The notes beneath the pieces are model-generated. The model was not told the DNA's origin. It was given only the letters and a program-made list of their open reading frames with translations, and searched no databases. The position numbers and the translations under genes were made by a program. Of a DNA stretch of 64,000 bases, positions 6,310 to 30,729 are shown one piece after another. Each line of letters opens with the position of its first letter. Position 1 is the first letter of the stretch. Location of the stretch: contig JAPLJV010000004.1 in the NCBI GenBank assembly GCA_026388415.1, positions 530 to 64,529 of the forward strand, given 5' to 3'. The DNA comes from Deltaproteobacteria bacterium (GTDB taxonomy: Bacteria; Desulfobacterota; Syntrophia; Syntrophales; JACQWR01).

Positions 6310-7054
6310 ATGGACTATTGAGGAACTGAAACTTGCGCTTGCGCTGTATTGCCAAATTCCCTTTGGCAAAATGCACTCCAGAAACCCCGATGTTATCAGA
6401 TTAGCAGATAAAATAGGCAGAACAGCTTCTGCTGTTGCCATGAAGTTGGTGAATTTTGCAAGTCTCGACCCAGAAATAACAGCGTCTGGCAGGACAGGTC
6501 TTGGAAATGCTTCTGCAACGGATAAAATGGTTTGGGAAACATTCCAAACTGATTGGGATAATGAGTTGCTAAAAGCAACAAAGGATCTTCCTGATTTTAA
6601 AATTCTTTCTTACGAGGATACTGAAGAACCGCTTGTTATTTCTGGCGACACGACTCGTAAGGCTGAAGTAGAAATCAGAATGAAGCAATCCATTTTCCGG
6701 CGCATGATTTTAAGCAGCTATGCTGGCGTATGTTGTATAAGTGGCCTTTCCGAGCCAAAACTACTCATTGCGAGCCATATTGTTCCGTGGAACAAGGACA
6801 GTGAAAATCGGCTGAATCCGCGCAATGGCTTATGCCTATCAGTTTTACATGATAAGGCGTTTGACAGAGGATTGATTACCGTTTTGCCTGATTATACTGT
6901 CGTTGTATCAAAGGAAATTACCAAATTAACAGACGATCGTTTTGCTCAAATCACACTTGTGGCAAATAACGGCCAAAAGATCAAAATGCCGGAAAAATTT
7001 CGTCCATTACCGGAATTTTTAACATGGCATAACCAGAATATGTTCAAACAATAA
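6302..7054 (+). CDS. HNH endonuclease (HNH_2-type, candidate restriction nuclease)
   Basis: ORF 6200.. trimmed to the ATG at 6302, which overlaps the dcm stop by 8 nt (ATGAATAA). C-terminal ASHIVPWNKDSENRLNPRNGLCLSVLHDKAFDRGLITV is the HNH_2 signature as I know it. Confidence 0.8.
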   Translation: MNKWTIEELKLALALYCQIPFGKMHSRNPDVIRLADKIGRTASAVAMKLVNFASLDPEITASGRTGLGNASATDKMVWETFQTDWDNELLKATKDLPDFKILSYEDTEEPLVISGDTTRKAEVEIRMKQSIFRRMILSSYAGVCCISGLSEPKLLIASHIVPWNKDSENRLNPRNGLCLSVLHDKAFDRGLITVLPDYTVVVSKEITKLTDDRFAQITLVANNGQKIKMPEKFRPLPEFLTWHNQNMFKQ

Positions 7055-15116: not shown

Positions 15117-17330
15117 CTATCCCAGTATTGATTCCATGGTAAGCGCCGGGTGGTTCTTTTCCGTCAAGAACGGCAGAATCTCATCTTCTGTGACCCCGAT
15201 CGTCTCATCGGCGATCATATCAACAAAATTGGCAATTCCCAGTTCGGCCGCCCGTTTCTCCAATCGCTCCCTCAGCTCCTCTTTGAGTATCTTGGGCATC
15301 CACACTAATCTTGGCAATCCTCCGTCGCCTGTCACCCACTTGCGCTGGGTGATATTGTACTTGCTGTGACCGAGGAATCCGGGCGTGACGCCGCCGCCGC
15401 CGGCTGTTCCGGCCAGGGTGGAGAACTTCATTCCGGAGGGGGTCATGCCGTTGAAATCACGGTTCACTGTCATGATGCCATTGCACATGGGCATAACGGC
15501 GGCGATACATTCGCAGCATCCGCAGGTGGTCATGGGATCGTTCATGAGGCTGTACATGCTCACCGCTTCGATCTTCTGCCGGGAAGCGTTGAACACAAAG
15601 TCGTTTACGCCCTTCCACTGGCCGTAGCGATCGTTAAGTGTTTCTCCCTTGGGTACAGGCTGGTTTGGTCCCGTAGGATTGATCTCGAAGGAGGCCTTGC
15701 AGTCCATCCAGTTATAGGCGCCGCAGAGCCCGGTCCGTTCGGGGCTGATAACGCAGACGTGGCTGGGGGCAAAGGACTGGCAGAGGGTGCAGGAGTAGAA
15801 AGTATCGGTGGTCTCGTCGGTCATGCCCTCCACCCGGGCGTCCCGCTTGGCGTAAACTGTCCGGGCCTTGGTCACAAGCTCGCTCACCTTTGCCTTTTCC
15901 GTATAGATCTTTACCTGCACCTTGTCGAAGATGGCTCCGAAATCCTGGTGGAACCTGGCATGAAGGATCCGGCCAATATCGGCCAGGCGGAACCCCTTAT
16001 CCACCGCGGCCTTGCCGACCCTCAACCAGGCAATATCCCGCTGACCAATATGCATGATACCTTGGGCATAATTGATCAGGTGGTGAATCTGACGTTCCAG
16101 GATAGGCTCGAAATCCTCCTGCATCTTCCGGCCCGCCACCTCCGCCACAATGGCTAAGGGGAGCTGGGCCGGCGGAGTGAGTTGATCCAGATCGGGACCG
16201 ATAACCTCTACCCTGCCGTCTTCGACTTCGGCGATGCTCATGGAGGTAACCCACTCCACAGCCTGGGTCCGGCCACCGCCGCACTCCAGATAGATATCCT
16301 CGCCGCGGACCCGTTCGCCTTCAAAGGCCGGTCCATAGGCGACCGGCACCGGGACATTGGACACCGTAACCTTCAGGCCCCTTACCTCGACGGACCGCTG
16401 GACTATCTGGTCGTGAGGGACATTGGCCACCACATGTTCATAGGTACACACGCCCGTGGGCAGGATTTCCGGGATATCCGTATCGGCGATGGTGGGGAAG
16501 CCCCAGTTCACGCAACCCGCAGCGTTGGCCGCCCACTCGGCGCCTACATCGCCCAGGGCGTTGACAAAGGCAAATATCCGGTCCTTATTGTAAAGAAGCA
16601 TCTTCTTGGCGTCGCCTGGTTGCACCCCGCCAAAGGCCATGGCAGCCCGGTTGGCAAAACCCAGGGCGAAGACGGCGGCGGAGATATCCGGTCCGAAGGG
16701 GACCAGACGGGTGTTCCAGCCGATCTGCACCCCTGCTTCGCGGAGCTGCTCCGAGAAGGTGGTGCCGTTCTGGTTGCCGGCCATGAATACATAGAGGTTC
16801 TTTTTCTGATATTCCTCGGCAATCATCTTTGCCGTTCCGGGATCGGGGGCGGCGCCCACAATGGCAGCAAAGCCCGGGGCGGAGCCGTCCACAAATTCGA
16901 TCCCCCGCTTCCGGAAGATCACGTCCCCGGCAGCGCCCAGCCAGATCTTGCCGGAGACCTCGTCAATCTCCTCGCTCGTGAGGTAAAAATCGGGATCCTC
17001 GATATAGCGAATGGCCTCCACTATTTCCTCGGCCAGGATGGCCGCCATGCCGGCATCCAGCAGGGGGCCAAGGTAGGGCAGGTGATAAACATTCTTTATG
17101 TGGGACGGGAGCAGACCCCGACAGATTTCCATAGGTTTCCTGGCATCGCCCAGGGTCTTGACCGGGATGCCCAGAATCGAATAGATAATGGGCAGGTAAT
17201 AGGCGGTATTGGGAAATTCCAGTTTCTGTTCAGGTCCGTATTTTTCCAAGGCCTTCTTCAATTTACCCTCGGCCTTGGAAACGATATTGTATGCGCCCTG
17301 AATGGCGGCAAAGGCAACTAATTTGGACAT
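15117..17330 (-). CDS. acsB: acetyl-CoA synthase (CODH/ACS alpha subunit)
   Basis: 737 aa. A-cluster ligand regions CTLCQSFAPSHVCVISPERTGLCGA and TTCGCCECI. N-terminus typical of bacterial AcsB. Confidence 0.95.
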   Translation of the reverse strand: MSKLVAFAAIQGAYNIVSKAEGKLKKALEKYGPEQKLEFPNTAYYLPIIYSILGIPVKTLGDARKPMEICRGLLPSHIKNVYHLPYLGPLLDAGMAAILAEEIVEAIRYIEDPDFYLTSEEIDEVSGKIWLGAAGDVIFRKRGIEFVDGSAPGFAAIVGAAPDPGTAKMIAEEYQKKNLYVFMAGNQNGTTFSEQLREAGVQIGWNTRLVPFGPDISAAVFALGFANRAAMAFGGVQPGDAKKMLLYNKDRIFAFVNALGDVGAEWAANAAGCVNWGFPTIADTDIPEILPTGVCTYEHVVANVPHDQIVQRSVEVRGLKVTVSNVPVPVAYGPAFEGERVRGEDIYLECGGGRTQAVEWVTSMSIAEVEDGRVEVIGPDLDQLTPPAQLPLAIVAEVAGRKMQEDFEPILERQIHHLINYAQGIMHIGQRDIAWLRVGKAAVDKGFRLADIGRILHARFHQDFGAIFDKVQVKIYTEKAKVSELVTKARTVYAKRDARVEGMTDETTDTFYSCTLCQSFAPSHVCVISPERTGLCGAYNWMDCKASFEINPTGPNQPVPKGETLNDRYGQWKGVNDFVFNASRQKIEAVSMYSLMNDPMTTCGCCECIAAVMPMCNGIMTVNRDFNGMTPSGMKFSTLAGTAGGGGVTPGFLGHSKYNITQRKWVTGDGGLPRLVWMPKILKEELRERLEKRAAELGIANFVDMIADETIGVTEDEILPFLTEKNHPALTMESILG

Positions 17331-17433: not shown

Positions 17434-19521
17434 TTACCCCGCGGCCAGCTTCTGCCGATCCGCCATATCCATCAGGACCCGTTCACGGGCCTTGTCAATA
17501 CCTAAGGCCTTGCGCTTCTTGTCAATGTGGGCCAGCATCCGGCGGGCCATTTCGTAGGGATCCGAAACCACATCCCATTTGCCGCCCACTATCTTTTCCA
17601 AACCATTGAAGAGGTAATCCTTGAATACAGGCGACCCATCAATGGGCAGACCGGCGCCGAAGATGACATATACACCGCTGCCGACAAAATAATGTCCGAT
17701 GGCCACCGCCTTTTCACTCATCCATTCGGGGGCGCACCCCGCCAACGGCAGATCGCTCAGATCGTTGCCCAGGCCTCCCGCAGCCACTACTGCGGAGGCA
17801 GCCGAGAGCATCCGGCTGTTATCCACGCAGGAACCCATGTGCAGAATCGGGGGGATGCCCACGGTCTCACAAACTTCCGCCAGACCGGGTCCACAATAGA
17901 CCATCGCCGCCTCGGGTGTCAAAAGGCCCGCCTTGCCGAAGGCCATGGCGGCACAGCCCGTAGTCAGGATAATTACGTCATTTTTGAGCAGCTCCTTAGC
18001 CAGAATCAAATGGGCGTTGTCGTGCATCGTCCGGGCATTGTTGCATCCCACAATGGCGGCGATACCCCGGATCCGTCCATTGATGATGTTGTCATTCAGG
18101 GGGACATAAGAGCCGCGGAAGGTTCCGCCCAGGTTATACTCTATGGCCTCGTAGCTGAAACCCACGACCATCTTCTCTTTCTCCCGGGGGATCATCGCTT
18201 CCCCGCGACGATTGGGGAAGTTGTCAATGGCAATCTTCACTATCTTTTTGGCATCTGCCAGGGCGTTATGTTCGTCAAACTCCACATGGATCGTTGCGCC
18301 AGAGGCGATTTTGCAGCGTGTATTGGTGGTGATAAGCTTCGTATGGTAGCAGGCGCAGACATTGGCCAGGCTTTCCATGATACACTGGACATCCACCGTC
18401 ATGGCATCCACCACGCCGGTAACGATAGCCAGTTCCTGCTGCAGGAAGTTCCCGGCAATGGGCAGTCCGTGGCGGAGCAGAATTTCATTGGCCGTACAGC
18501 ACATACCGGCCAGGACAATGCCTTTGGCGCCCTTGCTTTTCGCATAGTCAAGCATCTCAGGATCCCGTACGGCCGCCACGATCATCTCCGGCAGCAACGC
18601 CTCATGACCATGGACGATAATATTTACGTGGTCTTCCTTCAGGACACCGAGGTTGATCTCACCGAGAATGGGCTTGGGAGTGCCGAACATGACATCCTGC
18701 AAATCAGTGGCAATCATCGAACCGGCCCAGCCATCCGCCAGGGCGGCGCGGAAACACTGTTTGACAAGGTTCTGGTAATCCTGATCTACCCCCATATGGG
18801 TCCGGTGCATGATCTCGACGATCTCCCTGTCTATTCCCCGGGGGATAATGTCCAGTTTCTTCCATAGGTCATACCGCGCCTGCGGAGCGCGTTTGGCGTA
18901 ATAGATTTCACCCTCCTGTTTGCCCCATTCACCCAAGGCTTTTTCCCCGACCTCCACAGCGATTTCGTATTTATTCCGCGGTGTTGCCACACTATCAACT
19001 GTGACGCTGATGGCCACGCCGAAGTCCGGGGCAATCGCCCGCAGTTTTTTCTCATCCACAATGTCATAATCCGGCGATTCGCGACGGGCTGCCGCCAGGA
19101 ATACCGCGGCGACGGTGCGACCGTGGTCGGAATGAGAGGCCGAGCCGGCGGCCACCATCCGGGAAAAATTTCGGGCCGCAATTGTTTCCGGCGTGGCGCC
19201 GCATAGCCCCTGCCGGGTATCTTTTCCCTCTGTATTTTCCAAATCCCCCCTTAAACCCCCTTTGGTAAAGGGGGGGATGGGGGAGTTTTTGGTCAGGGGC
19301 AGGCGGCAGGGCCCCTGGGCGCATAGCTTGCAGCAGGTGCCCTGGGCGCCGATATTGCACGGTTTCATGTTTTCGGCACGATCAAATATGGTCTCCACCC
19401 CATCGGCCTGTGCCTTGTAGAGCATCTTGATGGTAGCCTGATCCACCGACTTTTCTTCCGGTTTAATCTGTTTCTTTTCCTTCTCCAGGGGCCTTATCTT
19501 GTCTTTTATCTCGTCCGACAT
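17434..19521 (-). CDS. acsA: Ni-Fe carbon monoxide dehydrogenase catalytic subunit (CODH/ACS beta)
   Basis: 695 aa. CNIGAQGTCCKLCAQGPCR (B/D-cluster Cys) and a CooS-family body. Carries an extra segment between PCR and GLCGA (see findings). Confidence 0.95.
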   Translation of the reverse strand: MSDEIKDKIRPLEKEKKQIKPEEKSVDQATIKMLYKAQADGVETIFDRAENMKPCNIGAQGTCCKLCAQGPCRLPLTKNSPIPPFTKGGLRGDLENTEGKDTRQGLCGATPETIAARNFSRMVAAGSASHSDHGRTVAAVFLAAARRESPDYDIVDEKKLRAIAPDFGVAISVTVDSVATPRNKYEIAVEVGEKALGEWGKQEGEIYYAKRAPQARYDLWKKLDIIPRGIDREIVEIMHRTHMGVDQDYQNLVKQCFRAALADGWAGSMIATDLQDVMFGTPKPILGEINLGVLKEDHVNIIVHGHEALLPEMIVAAVRDPEMLDYAKSKGAKGIVLAGMCCTANEILLRHGLPIAGNFLQQELAIVTGVVDAMTVDVQCIMESLANVCACYHTKLITTNTRCKIASGATIHVEFDEHNALADAKKIVKIAIDNFPNRRGEAMIPREKEKMVVGFSYEAIEYNLGGTFRGSYVPLNDNIINGRIRGIAAIVGCNNARTMHDNAHLILAKELLKNDVIILTTGCAAMAFGKAGLLTPEAAMVYCGPGLAEVCETVGIPPILHMGSCVDNSRMLSAASAVVAAGGLGNDLSDLPLAGCAPEWMSEKAVAIGHYFVGSGVYVIFGAGLPIDGSPVFKDYLFNGLEKIVGGKWDVVSDPYEMARRMLAHIDKKRKALGIDKARERVLMDMADRQKLAAG
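19243..19278. repeat. G/C-run palindromic element embedded in-frame in acsA
   Basis: ATCCCCCC TTAAA CCCCCTTT GGT AAAGGGGG GGAT. The inner hairpin CCCCCTTT/AAAGGGGG (19256-19274) and the outer ATCCCCCC/GGGGGGAT arms were read directly from the sequence. Confidence 0.6.
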
Positions 19522-19623: not shown

Positions 19624-20568
19624 TTACGCGGTAAAATCATTGATCATCTCTCGCACCAGCCGTACCGCTTCGGGGTGTCTCATCACCAGCACATCCGCCC
19701 CGGCCAGAAGAAGCAGGGTCGCGGTCATGGCCTCCATGATGATGCCCCGTCGGGTAGCATCCCCGAGGTGGGGGGCGTCTTCTGTTTTGGCCTTGGCCTC
19801 TTTGGTCTTCCAGACCTCCCCGGCCAGGTTGCAGATGATGGGGAATTGCAGTCTCTCGTCCTGTTGGGTAAGAGCGGCCATACGATCGCGCTCCATTACC
19901 GAGTAGGTATATTCGATTCCGTAACCCAAGCCTCCGGTAGTTGGATCTACTATGAGTTGACGATCCGGCACGCCAAGATTGCCGAGAAGTATGTTGAGCT
20001 GCTTGGCCAGGTTAATATCTATCGGCGTGTTGGCAGAGACGGTATGCTTATAGGCAATCGCGCCGGCGCCGATCTGCTTGTAGTTGTCCGCTACCACCGG
20101 ACCGAGGACCAGATTCATCCCGTCGCTTGCTTCGGCAACTTTGCGTAGTAAATCAGAATCCTTATCGGAGTTACCGCTTCCATAAACAACGACCGGGACA
20201 TCAACCGCCGCGGCCACTTTTTTGGCTGTCTCCGTTGCCTCTTCGCTCGATTTGTTGAGACCATTAGGATCCGTACTGACGAGCTGCAAAGCTATCAGTT
20301 CAGCGCCGTAAACATCTACCGCCTTCTGCGCCCACGCTACCGGATCATTAATAACGTCGAGATAGGGCTCTAATGCCGCCGCCGCCCAATTATCAGGCGC
20401 TACATCGTAAACCTCGATGGCAATTCTCGGGGCGTGGGGCATCTCTCCTTCAAAAAGATGAAAGGGATAGGATGTTTCTCCCCCCACGGTCACGGCTCTG
20501 GCGCCTTTTCCCAATACTACTTCCTTGATCTTTCCCGTATAGACCGCTTTCGGTATTGTGAATGTCAT
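19624..20568 (-). CDS. acsD: corrinoid iron-sulfur protein small subunit
   Basis: 314 aa. The MTFTIPKAVYTGKIKEVVLGKG... N-terminus and TIM-barrel-like body are typical of AcsD/CdhD. Sits in the ACS context. Confidence 0.9.
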   Translation of the reverse strand: MTFTIPKAVYTGKIKEVVLGKGARAVTVGGETSYPFHLFEGEMPHAPRIAIEVYDVAPDNWAAAALEPYLDVINDPVAWAQKAVDVYGAELIALQLVSTDPNGLNKSSEEATETAKKVAAAVDVPVVVYGSGNSDKDSDLLRKVAEASDGMNLVLGPVVADNYKQIGAGAIAYKHTVSANTPIDINLAKQLNILLGNLGVPDRQLIVDPTTGGLGYGIEYTYSVMERDRMAALTQQDERLQFPIICNLAGEVWKTKEAKAKTEDAPHLGDATRRGIIMEAMTATLLLLAGADVLVMRHPEAVRLVREMINDFTA

Positions 20569-26822: not shown

Positions 26823-29492
26823 TTAGATAATTGCAGCCGCGGCAGATTGGGCGATGTCCTGAAATTTCTTTAAAGCCGCCTCCAGGACATTATGTTTCCC
26901 CATCAAATCGCGATACTTTTCTTCCTCTTTACTTACAATTGCTTCGGCCGCTTTGGCGCGGAAATCGCTGTTGCTGAGCTTCTTAGAAACAAATGACAGG
27001 TCTTTGGCTACCTTGGCAATTTCCTTTTCCAACCTGAACTTTTCGGCGGGAATATCAATGAGCCCTTCGAGGAGAACATATATCATCATGTCCGCCGCGA
27101 CGGCAGTGGCCGCCTCTTTCGCTTCCACTGCCGCGGTAACAATGGTCAGCTCTACCAGATTGGCTAAATGGTAAATATAGTCTTCCGCGCTTAAAATAAC
27201 AGACCGGGATTTGTCGTCTGAGGCATGGATAATTACCTTGAGCTTTTTAGAGGGGGCAATCCCCATTTCTCCACGAATGTTACGGATGGCGGTAATTATC
27301 TCCACAATATTGCGTACTTCCTGCTCGGCAGCGTCATCCCGAGCGGTGTCATTGGGGACGGGAAATTCACTGACCATGAGGTAACCGTCATTGCTGATCA
27401 AATGCTGCCATATTTCCTCGCTCACAAAAGGCATGAAGGGGTGCAGGAGTTTGAGCGATGCCTCCAATACCTGAAGTAACGTGCTCTGAACCGCCCTTCT
27501 CGATCCGGCCTGGCTCTTGCCATAAAGAACCGGTTTTACTAATTCCACGTACCAGTCACATAATTCATGCCAGATGAACTGATAAATGGCTGCGGCCGCC
27601 TCATTAAACCGATACTCATCCAAAGCCTTGATTACTTCCACGACAGTTACGTTCAAACGGGATTTGATCCAGCGGTCAGCGAGCGATAATTCCCCGGTGT
27701 TGACTGGCGATGCGGAGTCATAATCTTCGATATTCATCTGAACGAACTTGGCCATGTTCCAGATCTTGTTTACGAAAAATTTGTAACCCTCTATTCTCTC
27801 CTCGGACATGCGCACATCCCGGCCCTGAGCAGTAAAAGCGGCCAGGGTAAACCGGAAGGCGTCGGCGCCGAACTTGTCCACCATTTTTAGGGGATCTATG
27901 CTGTTGCCCTTGGACTTGCTCATCTTTTCGCCTTTTTCGTCGCGAACGAGGGCATGGAGATAAACATCGCGGAAAGGGACTTCCTTCATAATGTAAAGCC
28001 CCATCATCATCATCCGGGCAACCCAGAAAAAGAGGATATCAAAGCCCGTGATCAACAGGGAAGTTGGATAGAAGGTTTTCAAGGCGGGCGTTTCGTCCGG
28101 CCAGCCCAGCGTGGAAAATGGCCAAAGGGCGGAACTGAACCAGGTATCGAGGACATCTTCATCCTGCTTTAAGTTCGTTTTGCCACAATCCGGGCAGGCA
28201 AGCGGTTCAGCGGCGGCGACAATAATCCTGCCGCATTCGCAATACCAGACGGGGATGCGATGGCCCCACCAGATCTGCCGGGAAATGCACCAGTCACGGA
28301 TATTATTCATCCATTCATAATAGGTGCTTTCCCACATTGAAGGGATTATTCTTGTTTTCCCCTTGGTGACCGCGTTACTGGCTGCCTTGGCCAACGGCTT
28401 GACCTTGACGAACCACTGGCGGGAAACGGTTGGCTCAATATCCGTATGACAGCGATAGCAGCGCCCGATATTATGGTTGTAGGGCTCTTTGTGATCCAGA
28501 TAACCGCCGCTTTCCAAATCCTTGATAATATTTTTTCGGGCCTCGTAACGGTCCATCCCTTCATAAATGCCGCCCTCGGCGTTGATAACGGCGTCTCCAT
28601 TCATGATTTTCAGAATGGGCAGTTGATGCCGTTCGGCCATAGAGAAATCATTGGGGTCGCAGGCCGGCGTAATTTTCACGGCGCCGGTGCCGAATTCCAG
28701 GGAAACATAGTCATCGGCAATGACGGGTATTTCTCGATTAACAAGCGGCAACATGACTGTTTTGCCAATCTTGCCCTGGTGCCTTTTGTCATGGGGGTTA
28801 ACGGCGACGGCCGTATCGCCAAGCATGGTCTCCGGACGCGTTGTTGCCACCACGATCTCGCCCCGGCCCTGGGTAAGAGGATACCGAATATACCAAAGTG
28901 ACGACGGCTCCTCCGTATACTCCACCTCCAGATCAGAAATGGCCGTATGACAGCGGGGACACCAGTTAACAATATAATCACCTTGGTAGATCAAACCGTC
29001 ATTATATAAACGCACAAAGGCTTCCCGGACCGCCCTGGACAGACCTTCATCCATCGTAAAGCGTTCCCTGGACCAGTCGCAGGAACAACCAAGTCTTTTC
29101 AACTGATTGATGATAGTCCCGCCTGATTTGGCTTTCCATTCCCAAACCCGGGCCAGAAACTTTTCCCTGCCCAGATCATGCCGGGATATGCCTTCGGCCG
29201 CCAGTTGCTGCTCCACGACATTCTGGGTGGCGATACCCGCGTGATCCATACCGGGCATCCAAAGCGTGTTGTAACCCTGCATGCGCCGGTATCTGATCAT
29301 AATGTCCTGGAGGACATTATTCAAGGCATGGCCCATGTGCAGAATTCCTGTAACGTTAGGAGGCGGGATGACAATGCAATAGGGTTTATTGGGACTGCTG
29401 TCCGCGGCATGAAACAAATTGCCGCTGACCCAGCTCTGATAATAACTGTCCTCAGAACCATGCGGTTCAAAAGATTTACTCAATAATTTCAT
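26823..29492 (-). CDS. valS: valine-tRNA ligase
   Basis: 889 aa. PPPNVTGILHMGHA (HIGH) and KMSKSKGN (KMSKS), with a C-terminal coiled coil. Confidence 0.95.
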   Translation of the reverse strand: MKLLSKSFEPHGSEDSYYQSWVSGNLFHAADSSPNKPYCIVIPPPNVTGILHMGHALNNVLQDIMIRYRRMQGYNTLWMPGMDHAGIATQNVVEQQLAAEGISRHDLGREKFLARVWEWKAKSGGTIINQLKRLGCSCDWSRERFTMDEGLSRAVREAFVRLYNDGLIYQGDYIVNWCPRCHTAISDLEVEYTEEPSSLWYIRYPLTQGRGEIVVATTRPETMLGDTAVAVNPHDKRHQGKIGKTVMLPLVNREIPVIADDYVSLEFGTGAVKITPACDPNDFSMAERHQLPILKIMNGDAVINAEGGIYEGMDRYEARKNIIKDLESGGYLDHKEPYNHNIGRCYRCHTDIEPTVSRQWFVKVKPLAKAASNAVTKGKTRIIPSMWESTYYEWMNNIRDWCISRQIWWGHRIPVWYCECGRIIVAAAEPLACPDCGKTNLKQDEDVLDTWFSSALWPFSTLGWPDETPALKTFYPTSLLITGFDILFFWVARMMMMGLYIMKEVPFRDVYLHALVRDEKGEKMSKSKGNSIDPLKMVDKFGADAFRFTLAAFTAQGRDVRMSEERIEGYKFFVNKIWNMAKFVQMNIEDYDSASPVNTGELSLADRWIKSRLNVTVVEVIKALDEYRFNEAAAAIYQFIWHELCDWYVELVKPVLYGKSQAGSRRAVQSTLLQVLEASLKLLHPFMPFVSEEIWQHLISNDGYLMVSEFPVPNDTARDDAAEQEVRNIVEIITAIRNIRGEMGIAPSKKLKVIIHASDDKSRSVILSAEDYIYHLANLVELTIVTAAVEAKEAATAVAADMMIYVLLEGLIDIPAEKFRLEKEIAKVAKDLSFVSKKLSNSDFRAKAAEAIVSKEEEKYRDLMGKHNVLEAALKKFQDIAQSAAAAII

Positions 29493-29507
29493 ATATTCAG
29501 ATATTCA

Positions 29508-29548
29508 GATGGGGAGGGGGCTGATTTGAAATCAGCCCCCTCCCCATC
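29508..29548. terminator. very stable GC-rich hairpin between the TPR/SLH gene and valS
   Basis: GATGGGGAGGGGGCTGATTT-G-AAATCAGCCCCCTCCCCATC, with perfect 20-nt arms. It lies 20 nt after the upstream stop (29569) and 15 nt before the valS ATG. No clean U-tract follows it on the minus sense. Confidence 0.4.
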
Positions 29549-29568
29549 TGTCCCCTCGGCAAAAAAGA

Positions 29569-30729
29569 TCAGAATTTCAGTTCTTCCTGGATTTTTCTGA
29601 TATAAAGCAACGCATCTACGCCAGGCACGTCACCTAAGGGCGCAAATTCCCCGGACGTAAAATCTTTTACCCCCATGATCTGCCTTGTGGTAACAACCAT
29701 AACGGCGTTGAAATAAGGAAGATCGGAGCGCAAATCCGGGAAAGGCGAGGTCTGGCCGATAAATTTTGTCGCCAAAGTATTATCGCCCGTCACCTTGATG
29801 AGAATGTCTTCCAGCATCATGGCATAAGTAGCACGATCAATATTCTCTCCTGGATGGAATAAACCATCAGAGTAAGTCTCCAGCCCACGTACGCCAACTC
29901 CCAGAATTCCTTCTATATCTACCTTTAAGGGATGATCGGCAATATCTTTGGGCATTGCTGCCGCTGCGGGGGCATTCTTCGCCTTCTCGGGATCCTTGAA
30001 AGAGGTATCGAACGTTTTAATACTGCGCTTCTTGTATAAAACGTCAATTTTAAGCTCTTCCATAAACAAGGCAGCCACATCGGCCCGGGTAATGCGCTGC
30101 AGGAGGGCAATCTTTTTACCGGCTGCTGTTCCGGGCATGGCCCGCAGGATCTTCTGGATCAGATTCCATGAGATATCGGCGTCCTTTACATATTCCTTCT
30201 TCAGATCAATAACTTTCCGGAACATCTGACCGGCCTGTTCAAAGTCCTGTACCGATATGTAGGCAATACCCATATAGTAATAAGCGGCTGAAGACTGCTT
30301 GTCAATCTTGACAGCACGTTCGAATTCATCGCGGGCGTCATCCAACCATTTACCGCTCATACCCTTGTAAAAAAGTCTTATCCGCGCGATGTGTACAAAT
30401 AATTTTTCCTCTTTGGTGTTGGCATTGCTCCAGGCCTTTTTAATCGCCTCGGCGGCTGCGTCATGATCACCCGTGTAGGCCTTGACCAAGGCAATCCCGG
30501 CATGGGCTTGAGAAAACTCGGGGGCTATCTGGATGGCCAGAGTGAACTCCCGCTCTGCCTCTATATATTTGTCCTCTTCGAGTAAACGCAGGCCGGCAAC
30601 ACTATGGTGTTCCGGTGTGTCCATCGCGCTGACAGGCTTTCGTAATTCCGGCGCACAAGCAAGCATTGCCATCGTCAAACAAATTAACACAACCGATAAT
30701 ACCGATTTTCTGATCTTGAACCGTTTCAT
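29569..30729 (-). CDS. lipoprotein with TPR repeats and SLH-like C-terminal repeats
   Basis: Lipobox MAMLAC; TPR-like N-terminal half; two segments resembling S-layer-homology motifs (ITRADVAALFMEEL, IDRATYAMMLEDIL). Confidence 0.65.
   Translation of the reverse strand: MKRFKIRKSVLSVVLICLTMAMLACAPELRKPVSAMDTPEHHSVAGLRLLEEDKYIEAEREFTLAIQIAPEFSQAHAGIALVKAYTGDHDAAAEAIKKAWSNANTKEEKLFVHIARIRLFYKGMSGKWLDDARDEFERAVKIDKQSSAAYYYMGIAYISVQDFEQAGQMFRKVIDLKKEYVKDADISWNLIQKILRAMPGTAAGKKIALLQRITRADVAALFMEELKIDVLYKKRSIKTFDTSFKDPEKAKNAPAAAAMPKDIADHPLKVDIEGILGVGVRGLETYSDGLFHPGENIDRATYAMMLEDILIKVTGDNTLATKFIGQTSPFPDLRSDLPYFNAVMVVTTRQIMGVKDFTSGEFAPLGDVPGVDALLYIRKIQEELKF

Follow-up and report, generated by a model that had tools for sequence, protein, structure and literature searches.

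In the stretch of 64,000 nucleotides (nt) analyzed here (Deltaproteobacteria bacterium, assembly GCA_026388415.1, contig JAPLJV010000004.1, positions 530 to 64,529; hereafter the window), a short palindromic element lies in frame within acsA (also cooS), the gene for the catalytic subunit of the anaerobic Ni-Fe carbon monoxide dehydrogenase (CODH). A first-pass annotation of this DNA had described an in-frame insertion with a G/C-run palindrome at this place, and both points hold: the open reading frame (ORF) is intact and the 36-nt string ATCCCCCCTTAAACCCCCTTTGGTAAAGGGGGGGAT is found at exactly 19243-19278. The string occurs once in the window, where 0 matches are expected (100 shuffles). In a census of G and C runs, the acsA element is the sole place in the 64 kb where 48 nt contain four runs of five or more. 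The gene and the parts of the element are as follows.

17434-19521, minus strand: acsA/cooS, catalytic subunit of the anaerobic Ni-Fe CODH, an uninterrupted and intact ORF of 695 amino acids (aa)
19241-19288, minus strand: the inserted element of 48 nt, encoding NSPIPPFTKGGLRGDL (residues 79-94), delimited by DNA alignment with the empty allele L001
19256-19274: inner hairpin "X", CCCCCTTT-GGT-AAAGGGGG, with an 8-bp stem and a 3-nt loop
19241-19250: outer arm "Y", AAATCCCCCC on the plus strand (GGGGGGATTT on the gene strand), matching the family consensus
19279-19288: second outer Y arm, GGGGGAGTTT on the plus strand (AAACTCCCCC on the gene strand), two positions off the consensus AAATCCCCCC by alignment and folds
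19306-19308, minus strand: codon of Cys72, an invariant column aligned with Cys56 of Carboxydothermus hydrogenoformans CODH-II, upstream of the insertion
19231-19239, minus strand: codons of E95, N96 and T97, directly 3' of the insertion, all non-synonymous relative to the empty allele (Q, D, I)
19201-19203, minus strand: codon of Cys107, an invariant column aligned with Cys70 of CODH-II, downstream of the insertion

The host protein belongs to the CooS/AcsA family. The Prismane/CODH domain PF03063 is present in all 120 homologues listed (73-99% identity), and solved structures of CODH and of CODH/acetyl-CoA synthase (ACS) match the product over its full length with E=1e-186 (PDB 6ytt_B, E=1.3e-186, residues 22-675). 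The gene belongs to an acs cluster and has acsB (15117-17330) and a gene for a CdhD-family subunit of the corrinoid iron-sulfur protein (19624-20568) as neighbours. The N-terminal cysteine ligands of the D and B clusters are conserved, with C55, C63, C64, C67, C72 and C107 invariant in alignments of 15 and of 46 sequences. The protein reads ...CCKLCAQGPCR, then LPLTKNSPIPPFTKGGLRGDLENTEGKDTRQ, then GLCGATPETIAARN, so that the insert stands between the cysteines aligned with Cys56 and Cys70 of CODH-II, the third and the fourth ligand of the B cluster. It is thus retained in frame in an intact gene, as had been proposed. The assignment of cysteines to clusters rests on the numbering of CODH-II, in which Cys39, Cys47, Cys48 and Cys56 are cluster ligands (PMC13543214).

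The same part of the gene also carries an imperfect direct repeat of 27 nt at 19303-19356 (GCGGCAGGGCCCCTGGGCGCATAGCTT / GCAGCAGGTGCCCTGGGCGCCGATATT), which corresponds to two adjacent blocks of Cys-motif codons.

The size and the polarity of the insertion were determined by comparison with related alleles. On the gene strand the insert reads AAACTCCCCC AT CCCCCCCTTT ACC AAAGGGGG TTTAA GGGGGGATTT. Compared with the nearest allele (L001/P0001) and with 43 other relatives in which the loop could be read, its length is exactly 48 nt (16 codons), and all of them lack it. Each relative examined, from 99% down to 73% identity, shows a single clean gap of 16 residues opposite NSPIPPFTKGGLRGDL. The earlier figure of about 21 codons was too large and corresponds to the difference from distant solved CODHs, whose spacer is 10-11 residues long. 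In the AcsA clade of the host the normal spacer has 15 residues, LPLTK[KQ]D[LIM]EGKDTRQ, and the loop between the third and fourth B-cluster cysteine ligands has grown from 15 to 31 residues through the insert. The nearest empty allele, L001, is found on a metagenome contig in ENA, is about 98% identical at the DNA level and is without exactly window positions 19241-19288; the filled site CCAA[48 nt]GGAAAAT stands against the empty site CCAAGCAAGAT. Over the other 2040 positions there are 42 differences between the two alleles, 33 of which fall in synonymous codons, as is typical when purifying selection acts on a gene. The nearest relatives of the 695-aa protein have 679-680 aa, and the closest named ones are annotated as Smithellaceae. 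Within the 90%-identity cluster (24 members, 15 listed), 11 of the listed proteins have 679 aa, three are fragments, and the only one of 695 aa, P0126, is the window protein itself and the sole carrier of the insert. Judged by these alignments, the segment is shown to be a derived and recent in-frame insertion in one Smithellaceae-like lineage. One could instead assume an ancestral, lineage-specific AcsA loop that was lost elsewhere, as the spacer of the clade is already longer (15 residues) than that of the solved CODHs. This reading is practically negligible, since the insert is lacking in all 44 sequences with the loop read (77-99% identity) except P0126, including the alleles with about 98% identical DNA, and since the segment matches a repeat family outside AcsA (E=7e-13).

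G/C homopolymer palindromes are error-prone and the related cassettes described below are mostly found on very short contigs, and an assembly or sequencing artefact or a chimeric join was therefore weighed as well. The identical 695-aa product is encoded on Logan contigs of two run series, SRR20698650 (one contig shared by five samples) and the unrelated ERR15302170, and also on a contig of 128,774 nt from a metagenome-assembled genome (MAG) at NCBI (MCX5830347.1). The two Logan gene sequences each differ from that of the window at 1 of 2088 nt. With these independent public assemblies, the preserved frame and the presence of the element family in isolate genomes, an artefact is very improbable.

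Copies of the element were found far beyond this gene. The family consensus is AAATCCCCCC - n - CCCCCTTT-loop-AAAGGGGG - n - GGGGGGATTT and consists of two modules, the X hairpin (CCCCCTTT-loop-AAAGGGGG) and the Y arms (AAATCCCCC / GGGGGATTT). As members we counted X hairpins with a loop of 2-6 nt, flanked at a distance of 2-6 nt by AAATCCCCC and GGGGGATTT, with a total length of 42-48 nt. A scan of 185,579 species-representative genomes with the pattern CCCCCTTTN{2,6}AAAGGGGGN{3,7}GGGGG yielded at least 120 loci, where we estimate about 7 to be expected by chance. The matches listed come from Desulfobacterota, Nitrospirota, Beta- and Gammaproteobacteria, Ignavibacteria, Chloroflexota, Omnitrophota, Patescibacteria, Cyanobacteria and Chlamydiae. 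They include relatives of the host (Smithella sp. M82, L014, and a Syntrophaceae MAG, L035) and the isolate genomes of Geomesophilobacter sediminis, Iodobacter arcticus, Chromatium okenii and Algoriphagus aquimarinus. ATTT follows the second G run in nearly all of 172 matches, though it lay outside the search pattern, and AAATCCCCCC precedes many of them. Metagenomes, scanned with ACC as the fixed loop, again gave at least 120 loci with the same unsearched flanks. The 50 non-redundant complete copies are 42-47 nt long and have the ends AAAT/ATTT, as in the window copy.

The window copy aligns over its full length with 35 complete copies, its left arm on the gene strand being two positions off. 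A profile built from these 35 copies, with the window copy excluded, finds 19239-19291 with 44 bits and E=7e-13 on both strands. The next best score in the 64 kb is E=0.16, and no second copy was found in the window by exact string with up to three mismatches, core hairpin, G/C-run census or nhmmer --max. Rfam 15 gave nothing better than E=1.4 at 19000-19500, and only tRNAs in nine element-bearing loci. The proposal that the segment is a small repeated palindromic element with PPFxKGG-type translations was thus borne out by copies in other genomes. Of further copies in the same genome, which the first-pass annotation had named as a test, the 64-kb window shows none. By profile comparison, the segment is shown to be a bona fide member of a conserved, phylum-crossing repeat family, present here as a solo copy without an ORF.

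Copies of the Nitrospirota type are flanked by short tandem heptamers (AGACAGA, CAGAAGT, CAAACTC, ATAGAGT, GCATAGA), which are reminiscent of cyanobacterial short tandemly repeated repetitive (STRR) sequences. They were seen in L022 (about 2400-2930), L061 (about 6760-6850), L082 (about 2390-2460), L089 (about 2440-2500) and L150 (about 360-420).

The energy of the hairpin shows no significant difference from that of dinucleotide shuffles (z -0.3 to -1.4), because such shuffles retain the G and C homopolymer runs. Therefore, the case rests on family homology (profile E=7e-13) and not on energy. In the acsA mRNA the hairpin reaches -28 kcal/mol in 60 nt, which is 2.5 standard deviations (SD) below the mean 60-nt window of the gene, and it is not the most stable structure in the gene. 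A regulatory role of this mRNA hairpin is unnecessary to explain the insert.

The strongest local hairpin of the window is located elsewhere, at 29491-29570 (core 29516-29550, GGGGAGGGGGCTGATTTGAAATCAGCCCCCTCCCC), with about -46 kcal/mol per 60 nt whichever strand is folded. It resembles a bidirectional terminator and has no relation to the acsA element.

At the protein level, the insertion point is five residues past the arginine that aligns with Arg57 of CODH-II. Arg57 is surface-exposed beside the D cluster; it is situated along a solvent path and is in contact with Cys39, a D-cluster ligand provided by the partner subunit (PMC13543214). In the AlphaFold model, residues 78-98 form a coil with a predicted local distance difference test (pLDDT) score below 50. 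The model contains no metal clusters, so that the Cys-rich N-terminus is also of low confidence, and it gives an unconstrained coil rather than a position relative to the dimer. The first-pass annotation had placed the insert as a surface loop beside the B/D-cluster ligands. The flanking cysteines and the alignment with Arg57 agree with this placement. We infer a tolerated, probably disordered, Pro/Gly-rich loop that seems to have no dedicated function.

The three residues directly after the insert also differ from those of the empty allele. In the numbering of the empty allele these changes are Q79E, D80N and I81T, and the differences between the alleles are locally dense, with 8 of 41 differing codons lying within codons 53-81 (29 codons). 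Nowhere in the loop do relatives vary more than in the tripeptide at the point of insertion (K/Q-D/E-L/I/M/T/A). The changes could be compensatory, or could result from error-prone repair, from co-conversion with a donor or from import by recombination. The insert may also be thought adaptive, the loop altering docking or electron transfer at the B/D-cluster end or the mRNA hairpin regulating acsA translation. The closeness to the residue aligned with Arg57 (PMC13543214), the three changed neighbours and a hairpin 2.5 SD more stable than the mean 60-nt window of the gene would fit this. The same sequence family is present in unrelated proteins and in intergenic DNA of many phyla, though, and the insert was found in just one of about 15 close alleles. 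Moreover, the hairpin is not the most stable of the gene and the loop is modelled at low confidence. Altogether, we consider an adaptive insert improbable.

Other proteins were found to carry copies of the element in frame as well. Elements are rarer in long reading frames, with 37% of them within frames of at least 200 codons compared to 75% of random positions in the same loci, and about 1 in 10 copies lies deep inside a long ORF. For eight in-frame copies the host protein was recognised and the location confirmed by Pfam. They are mostly located between domains:

PurL: one copy between the PurM-like and the glutaminase domain
radical-SAM protein: one copy between the N-terminal domain and the core
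CbiG-methylase fusion: two copies
RecJ: one copy within the DHH domain
glycoside hydrolase family 3 (GH3) hydrolase: one copy
glycosyltransferase: one copy between its two domains
hybrid histidine kinase: one copy

The peptides encoded by the copies follow the pattern (N/S/I)PP-x-PP(F/L)x(K/R)GG-x-GG(F/I/L). Of all reading frames through complete copies, 68% are free of stop codons, and therefore an insertion with a length of 3n nt has a good chance of being read through. The window copy has two open frames out of three on the gene strand.

Besides its element copy, the PurL ORF of L117 (residues ~85-105 and 1113-1135) contains a low-complexity segment rich in Pro, Gly and Lys near the N-terminus, PPTHPSPSRGKGKGEGE, which may be a second kind of inserted repeat.

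Genes recurring next to the elements were searched by all-against-all clustering of 2402 ORFs from 240 loci fetched from the genome and metagenome scans. No recurrent transposase was found near the elements in this set; the clusters consist of orthologous loci, sensor kinases and DUF559 proteins. Orthologous loci and common sensor kinases aside, DUF559 is the only family recurring directly beside the elements. According to tblastn, it adjoins them in eight of the fetched loci. In six of these, an ORF of about 125 aa lies exactly between an upstream half-element (X - n - GGGGGATTT) and a downstream one (AAATCCCCC - n - X), which are about 400 nt apart. The remaining two are L058, where element copies stand on either side of the ORF, and L218, which is truncated at the end of its contig and has one copy upstream. 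Five cassette ORFs were scanned, and all match PF04480 (DUF559) with E=1e-31 to 1e-36, a Vsr-like PD-(D/E)xK nuclease domain. DUF559 cassettes are units of about 450 nt with half-elements as inverted termini. In L083, L098, L048 and L101 the same two ends are separated by just 10-20 nt with no ORF between them, and these elements look like internally deleted derivatives of such cassettes. The copy in acsA has a permuted form, Y arm - X - Y arm, as opposed to the cassette ends X - Y arm ... Y arm - X, and there is neither an ORF within it nor, according to tblastn, a DUF559 gene in the window.

The association was also visible from the protein side. Among the best 120 of at least about 8,000 DUF559 clusters found with a protein profile, 46 run into PP[FL]x[KR]G[GDE], the peptide being located directly after the DUF559 domain or before the start. 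Many other representatives terminate in ...IPP, ...NPP or ...SP, the peptides that AAATCCCCCC encodes. In another four DUF559 loci, picked because the motif is missing from their proteins, both half-elements are present in three cases and a complete type-A copy lies downstream in the last.

Several further observations were made on DUF559 loci. Most close relatives (P0135-P0254) are on contigs of 0.5-2 kb and several clusters have tens of member sequences, in keeping with multi-copy units that break short-read assemblies. In L270 (450-1210), a cassette is located between the cytochrome-c maturation genes resB and ccsA, with three half-elements upstream and about five downstream, and half-elements therefore accumulate in arrays on both sides of the nuclease gene. 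The closest viral DUF559 relative, on the viral contig L247, has direct tandem half-elements (X n GGGGGATTT + GCCTACTCC, period about 42 nt) upstream at 80-190, and no element was seen downstream of its DUF559 gene. More distant DUF559 genes on viral contigs are flanked by other palindromes, CCTCCCTTGTAAAGGGAGG...GGAGGGATTT and GGCTCCCC...GGGGAGC-TGTCAGCC...GGCTGAC, at L248 (130-240 and 600-660), L249 (1820-1896), L253 (1390-1500) and L255 (20-130 and 450-520). This suggests that DUF559 subfamily and repeat type co-vary.

Taken together, the best account, which we hold to be probable, is that a 48-nt element of this family was inserted in frame in acsA and is tolerated there as a passenger from a DUF559-linked family. 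The acsA copy would be a non-autonomous passenger, spread by a process that copies these palindromes and uses their hairpin ends. The most plausible agent of such a process is the DUF559 nuclease, in a role like that of the REP-associated tyrosine transposase (RAYT) for doublets of repetitive extragenic palindromic (REP) sequences, the REPINs. The copy would have survived in an essential gene owing to its length of 3n nt, the stop-free frame in which it landed and a hypervariable, probably solvent-exposed loop. That the nuclease itself acts on hairpin or cruciform ends without producing a target-site duplication is a suggestion we find almost as easy to believe as to doubt. The widest proposal is that the X/Y palindromes and the DUF559 gene bracketed by them form an undescribed, phylum-crossing mobile system, in which a Vsr-like nuclease and not a transposase spreads hairpins of 45-90 nt without target duplication. 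Such hairpins would regularly enter coding sequence and write PPFxKGG loops into conserved proteins, in this case between the iron-sulfur ligands of CODH. We put this forward tentatively and doubt it more than we believe it.

An alternative is that the palindromes are independent REP-like repeats copied in some other way, with the DUF559 gene as a homing-type parasite inserting into the loop of the Y hairpin and the acsA copy unrelated to the nuclease. DUF559/EDxHD relatives are known homing endonucleases (PMC3424549, PMC9403480). The nuclease gene is always found within the GGGGGATTT...AAATCCCCC hairpin, where ORF-less copies have short spacers. By a rough count, elements outnumber DUF559 genes tens to one (756 profile matches on both strands versus 9 by tblastn in the fetched loci). 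A comparable case is IS1397, which is specific for the palindromic units of E. coli. Against this alternative, no other candidate mobilising gene recurs near the elements among the 2402 ORFs of the 240 loci. The pairing of different DUF559 subfamilies with different palindromes fits a co-evolution of enzyme and substrate, but also target specificity. We regard a homing parasite of independent repeats as unlikely, if still a serious competitor.

Several points weigh against a nuclease-driven passenger in acsA. The DUF559 association is equally compatible with a nuclease gene homing into pre-existing palindromes. The 64-kb window contains neither a second copy nor a DUF559 gene, and among the 120 metagenome matches listed there was no sibling copy that shares its loop and spacers. 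Only one filled/empty pair exists, and it is without target duplication; none is obvious at the ends of the DUF559 cassettes either. Finally, the three abutting non-synonymous changes and the local density of differences could point to the import of a segment by recombination from a more divergent allele.

For CODH enzymology the event in acsA is a modest curiosity, while the repeat family is the more interesting result. CODH/ACS here offers a natural experiment, in which an enzyme that is presumably still selected for has gained 16 Pro/Gly-rich residues between two B-cluster ligands, close to the D cluster and the dimer interface; this marks the loop as permissive for engineering or tagging. 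The family is no curiosity of one genome, as a design of 45 nt occurs in at least 10 phyla and is physically coupled to DUF559 genes, which form a very large family (at least about 8,000 clusters) without an assigned role. If the nuclease drives the repeats, this would provide a function for DUF559, explain where the ubiquitous "PPFxKGG" pseudo-peptides of metagenome annotations originate, point to one source of breaks in assemblies, and constitute a nuclease-based counterpart to the REPIN-RAYT system.

We found no published description of the element or of a link between DUF559 and palindromes, which is weak evidence given the thin coverage of subscription journals. New here would be the phylum-crossing family and its coupling to DUF559, whereas a selfish palindromic repeat read in frame is a known phenomenon. 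The label "MITE/REP-like" given in the first-pass annotation, where MITE denotes a miniature inverted-repeat transposable element, holds only by analogy: the element has neither REP tags nor a target-site duplication, and the associated gene encodes a DUF559 endonuclease instead of a transposase. Like REP/REPIN-RAYT systems, the family has short, G+C-rich imperfect palindromes in inverted doublets with a short spacer, and a small enzyme gene that is bracketed by inverted repeats and far outnumbered by them (PMC3116915, PMC3337134, PMC3733652). REPs have a GTAG or CGTC tag (PMC3733652), are extragenic and mostly inherited vertically within a lineage, and are paired with a Y1 (HUH) transposase (PMC3116915, PMC3337134, PMC3733652). 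In contrast, the elements described here end with AAAT/ATTT, are often intragenic, cross phyla and have a PD-(D/E)xK Vsr-like nuclease as partner. Neither tag was found in the window copy or in the 50 complete copies, and no Y1 (RAYT) gene recurs in the 240 loci. With MITEs the family shares the small size, the lack of coding capacity, the terminal inverted repeats and the appearance of an internally deleted gene-bearing unit (PMC10969869, PMC3184786). Terminal inverted repeats are present in the window copy as a nested palindrome with Y arms of 9-10 nt, and a target-site duplication is absent from the single filled/empty pair. Different from MITEs, the longer unit encodes no transposase of the Asp-Asp-Glu (DDE) type, and the window copy is circularly permuted relative to the cassette ends.

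The nuclease domain of the cassettes is of the same family as that of EDxHD/DUF559 homing endonucleases such as I-Bth0305I, and these domains are an established homing-endonuclease family (PMC3424549, PMC9403480). For this family a selfish and site-specific life style is established (Taylor et al. 2011, via PMC3424549 and PMC9403480). The known enzymes reside in group I introns or inteins, whereas the cassettes described here are free-standing units of about 450 nt with nested palindromes and many ORF-less copies. The insertion sequences IS1397 and ISKpn1 in palindromic units of bacterial interspersed mosaic elements (BIMEs) are alike in that a gene-bearing element is situated within the loop of a repeated palindrome. 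IS1397 is a DDE element of the IS3 family with its own inverted repeats and target duplication, and nothing comparable was seen here.

A functional counterpart is found in the Rickettsia palindromic elements (RPE), reportedly described by Ogata et al. in 2000. RPEs are about 100-150 bp long and confined to Rickettsia, whereas the family of the acsA element has 42-48 nt, another sequence, a range of at least 10 phyla and a tie to a DUF559 gene. RPEs and the MITEs of Coxiella burnetii (PMC5896051) are, like the acsA element, palindromic repeats of a non-coding type that lie in frame in protein genes, some of them essential; they are likewise read through as extra peptides, typically at the surface or in linkers, and their presence varies between close relatives. 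By its size (48 nt) and host (Desulfobacterota), membership of the acsA element among the RPEs is implausible, and the resemblance is one of function and not of sequence homology.

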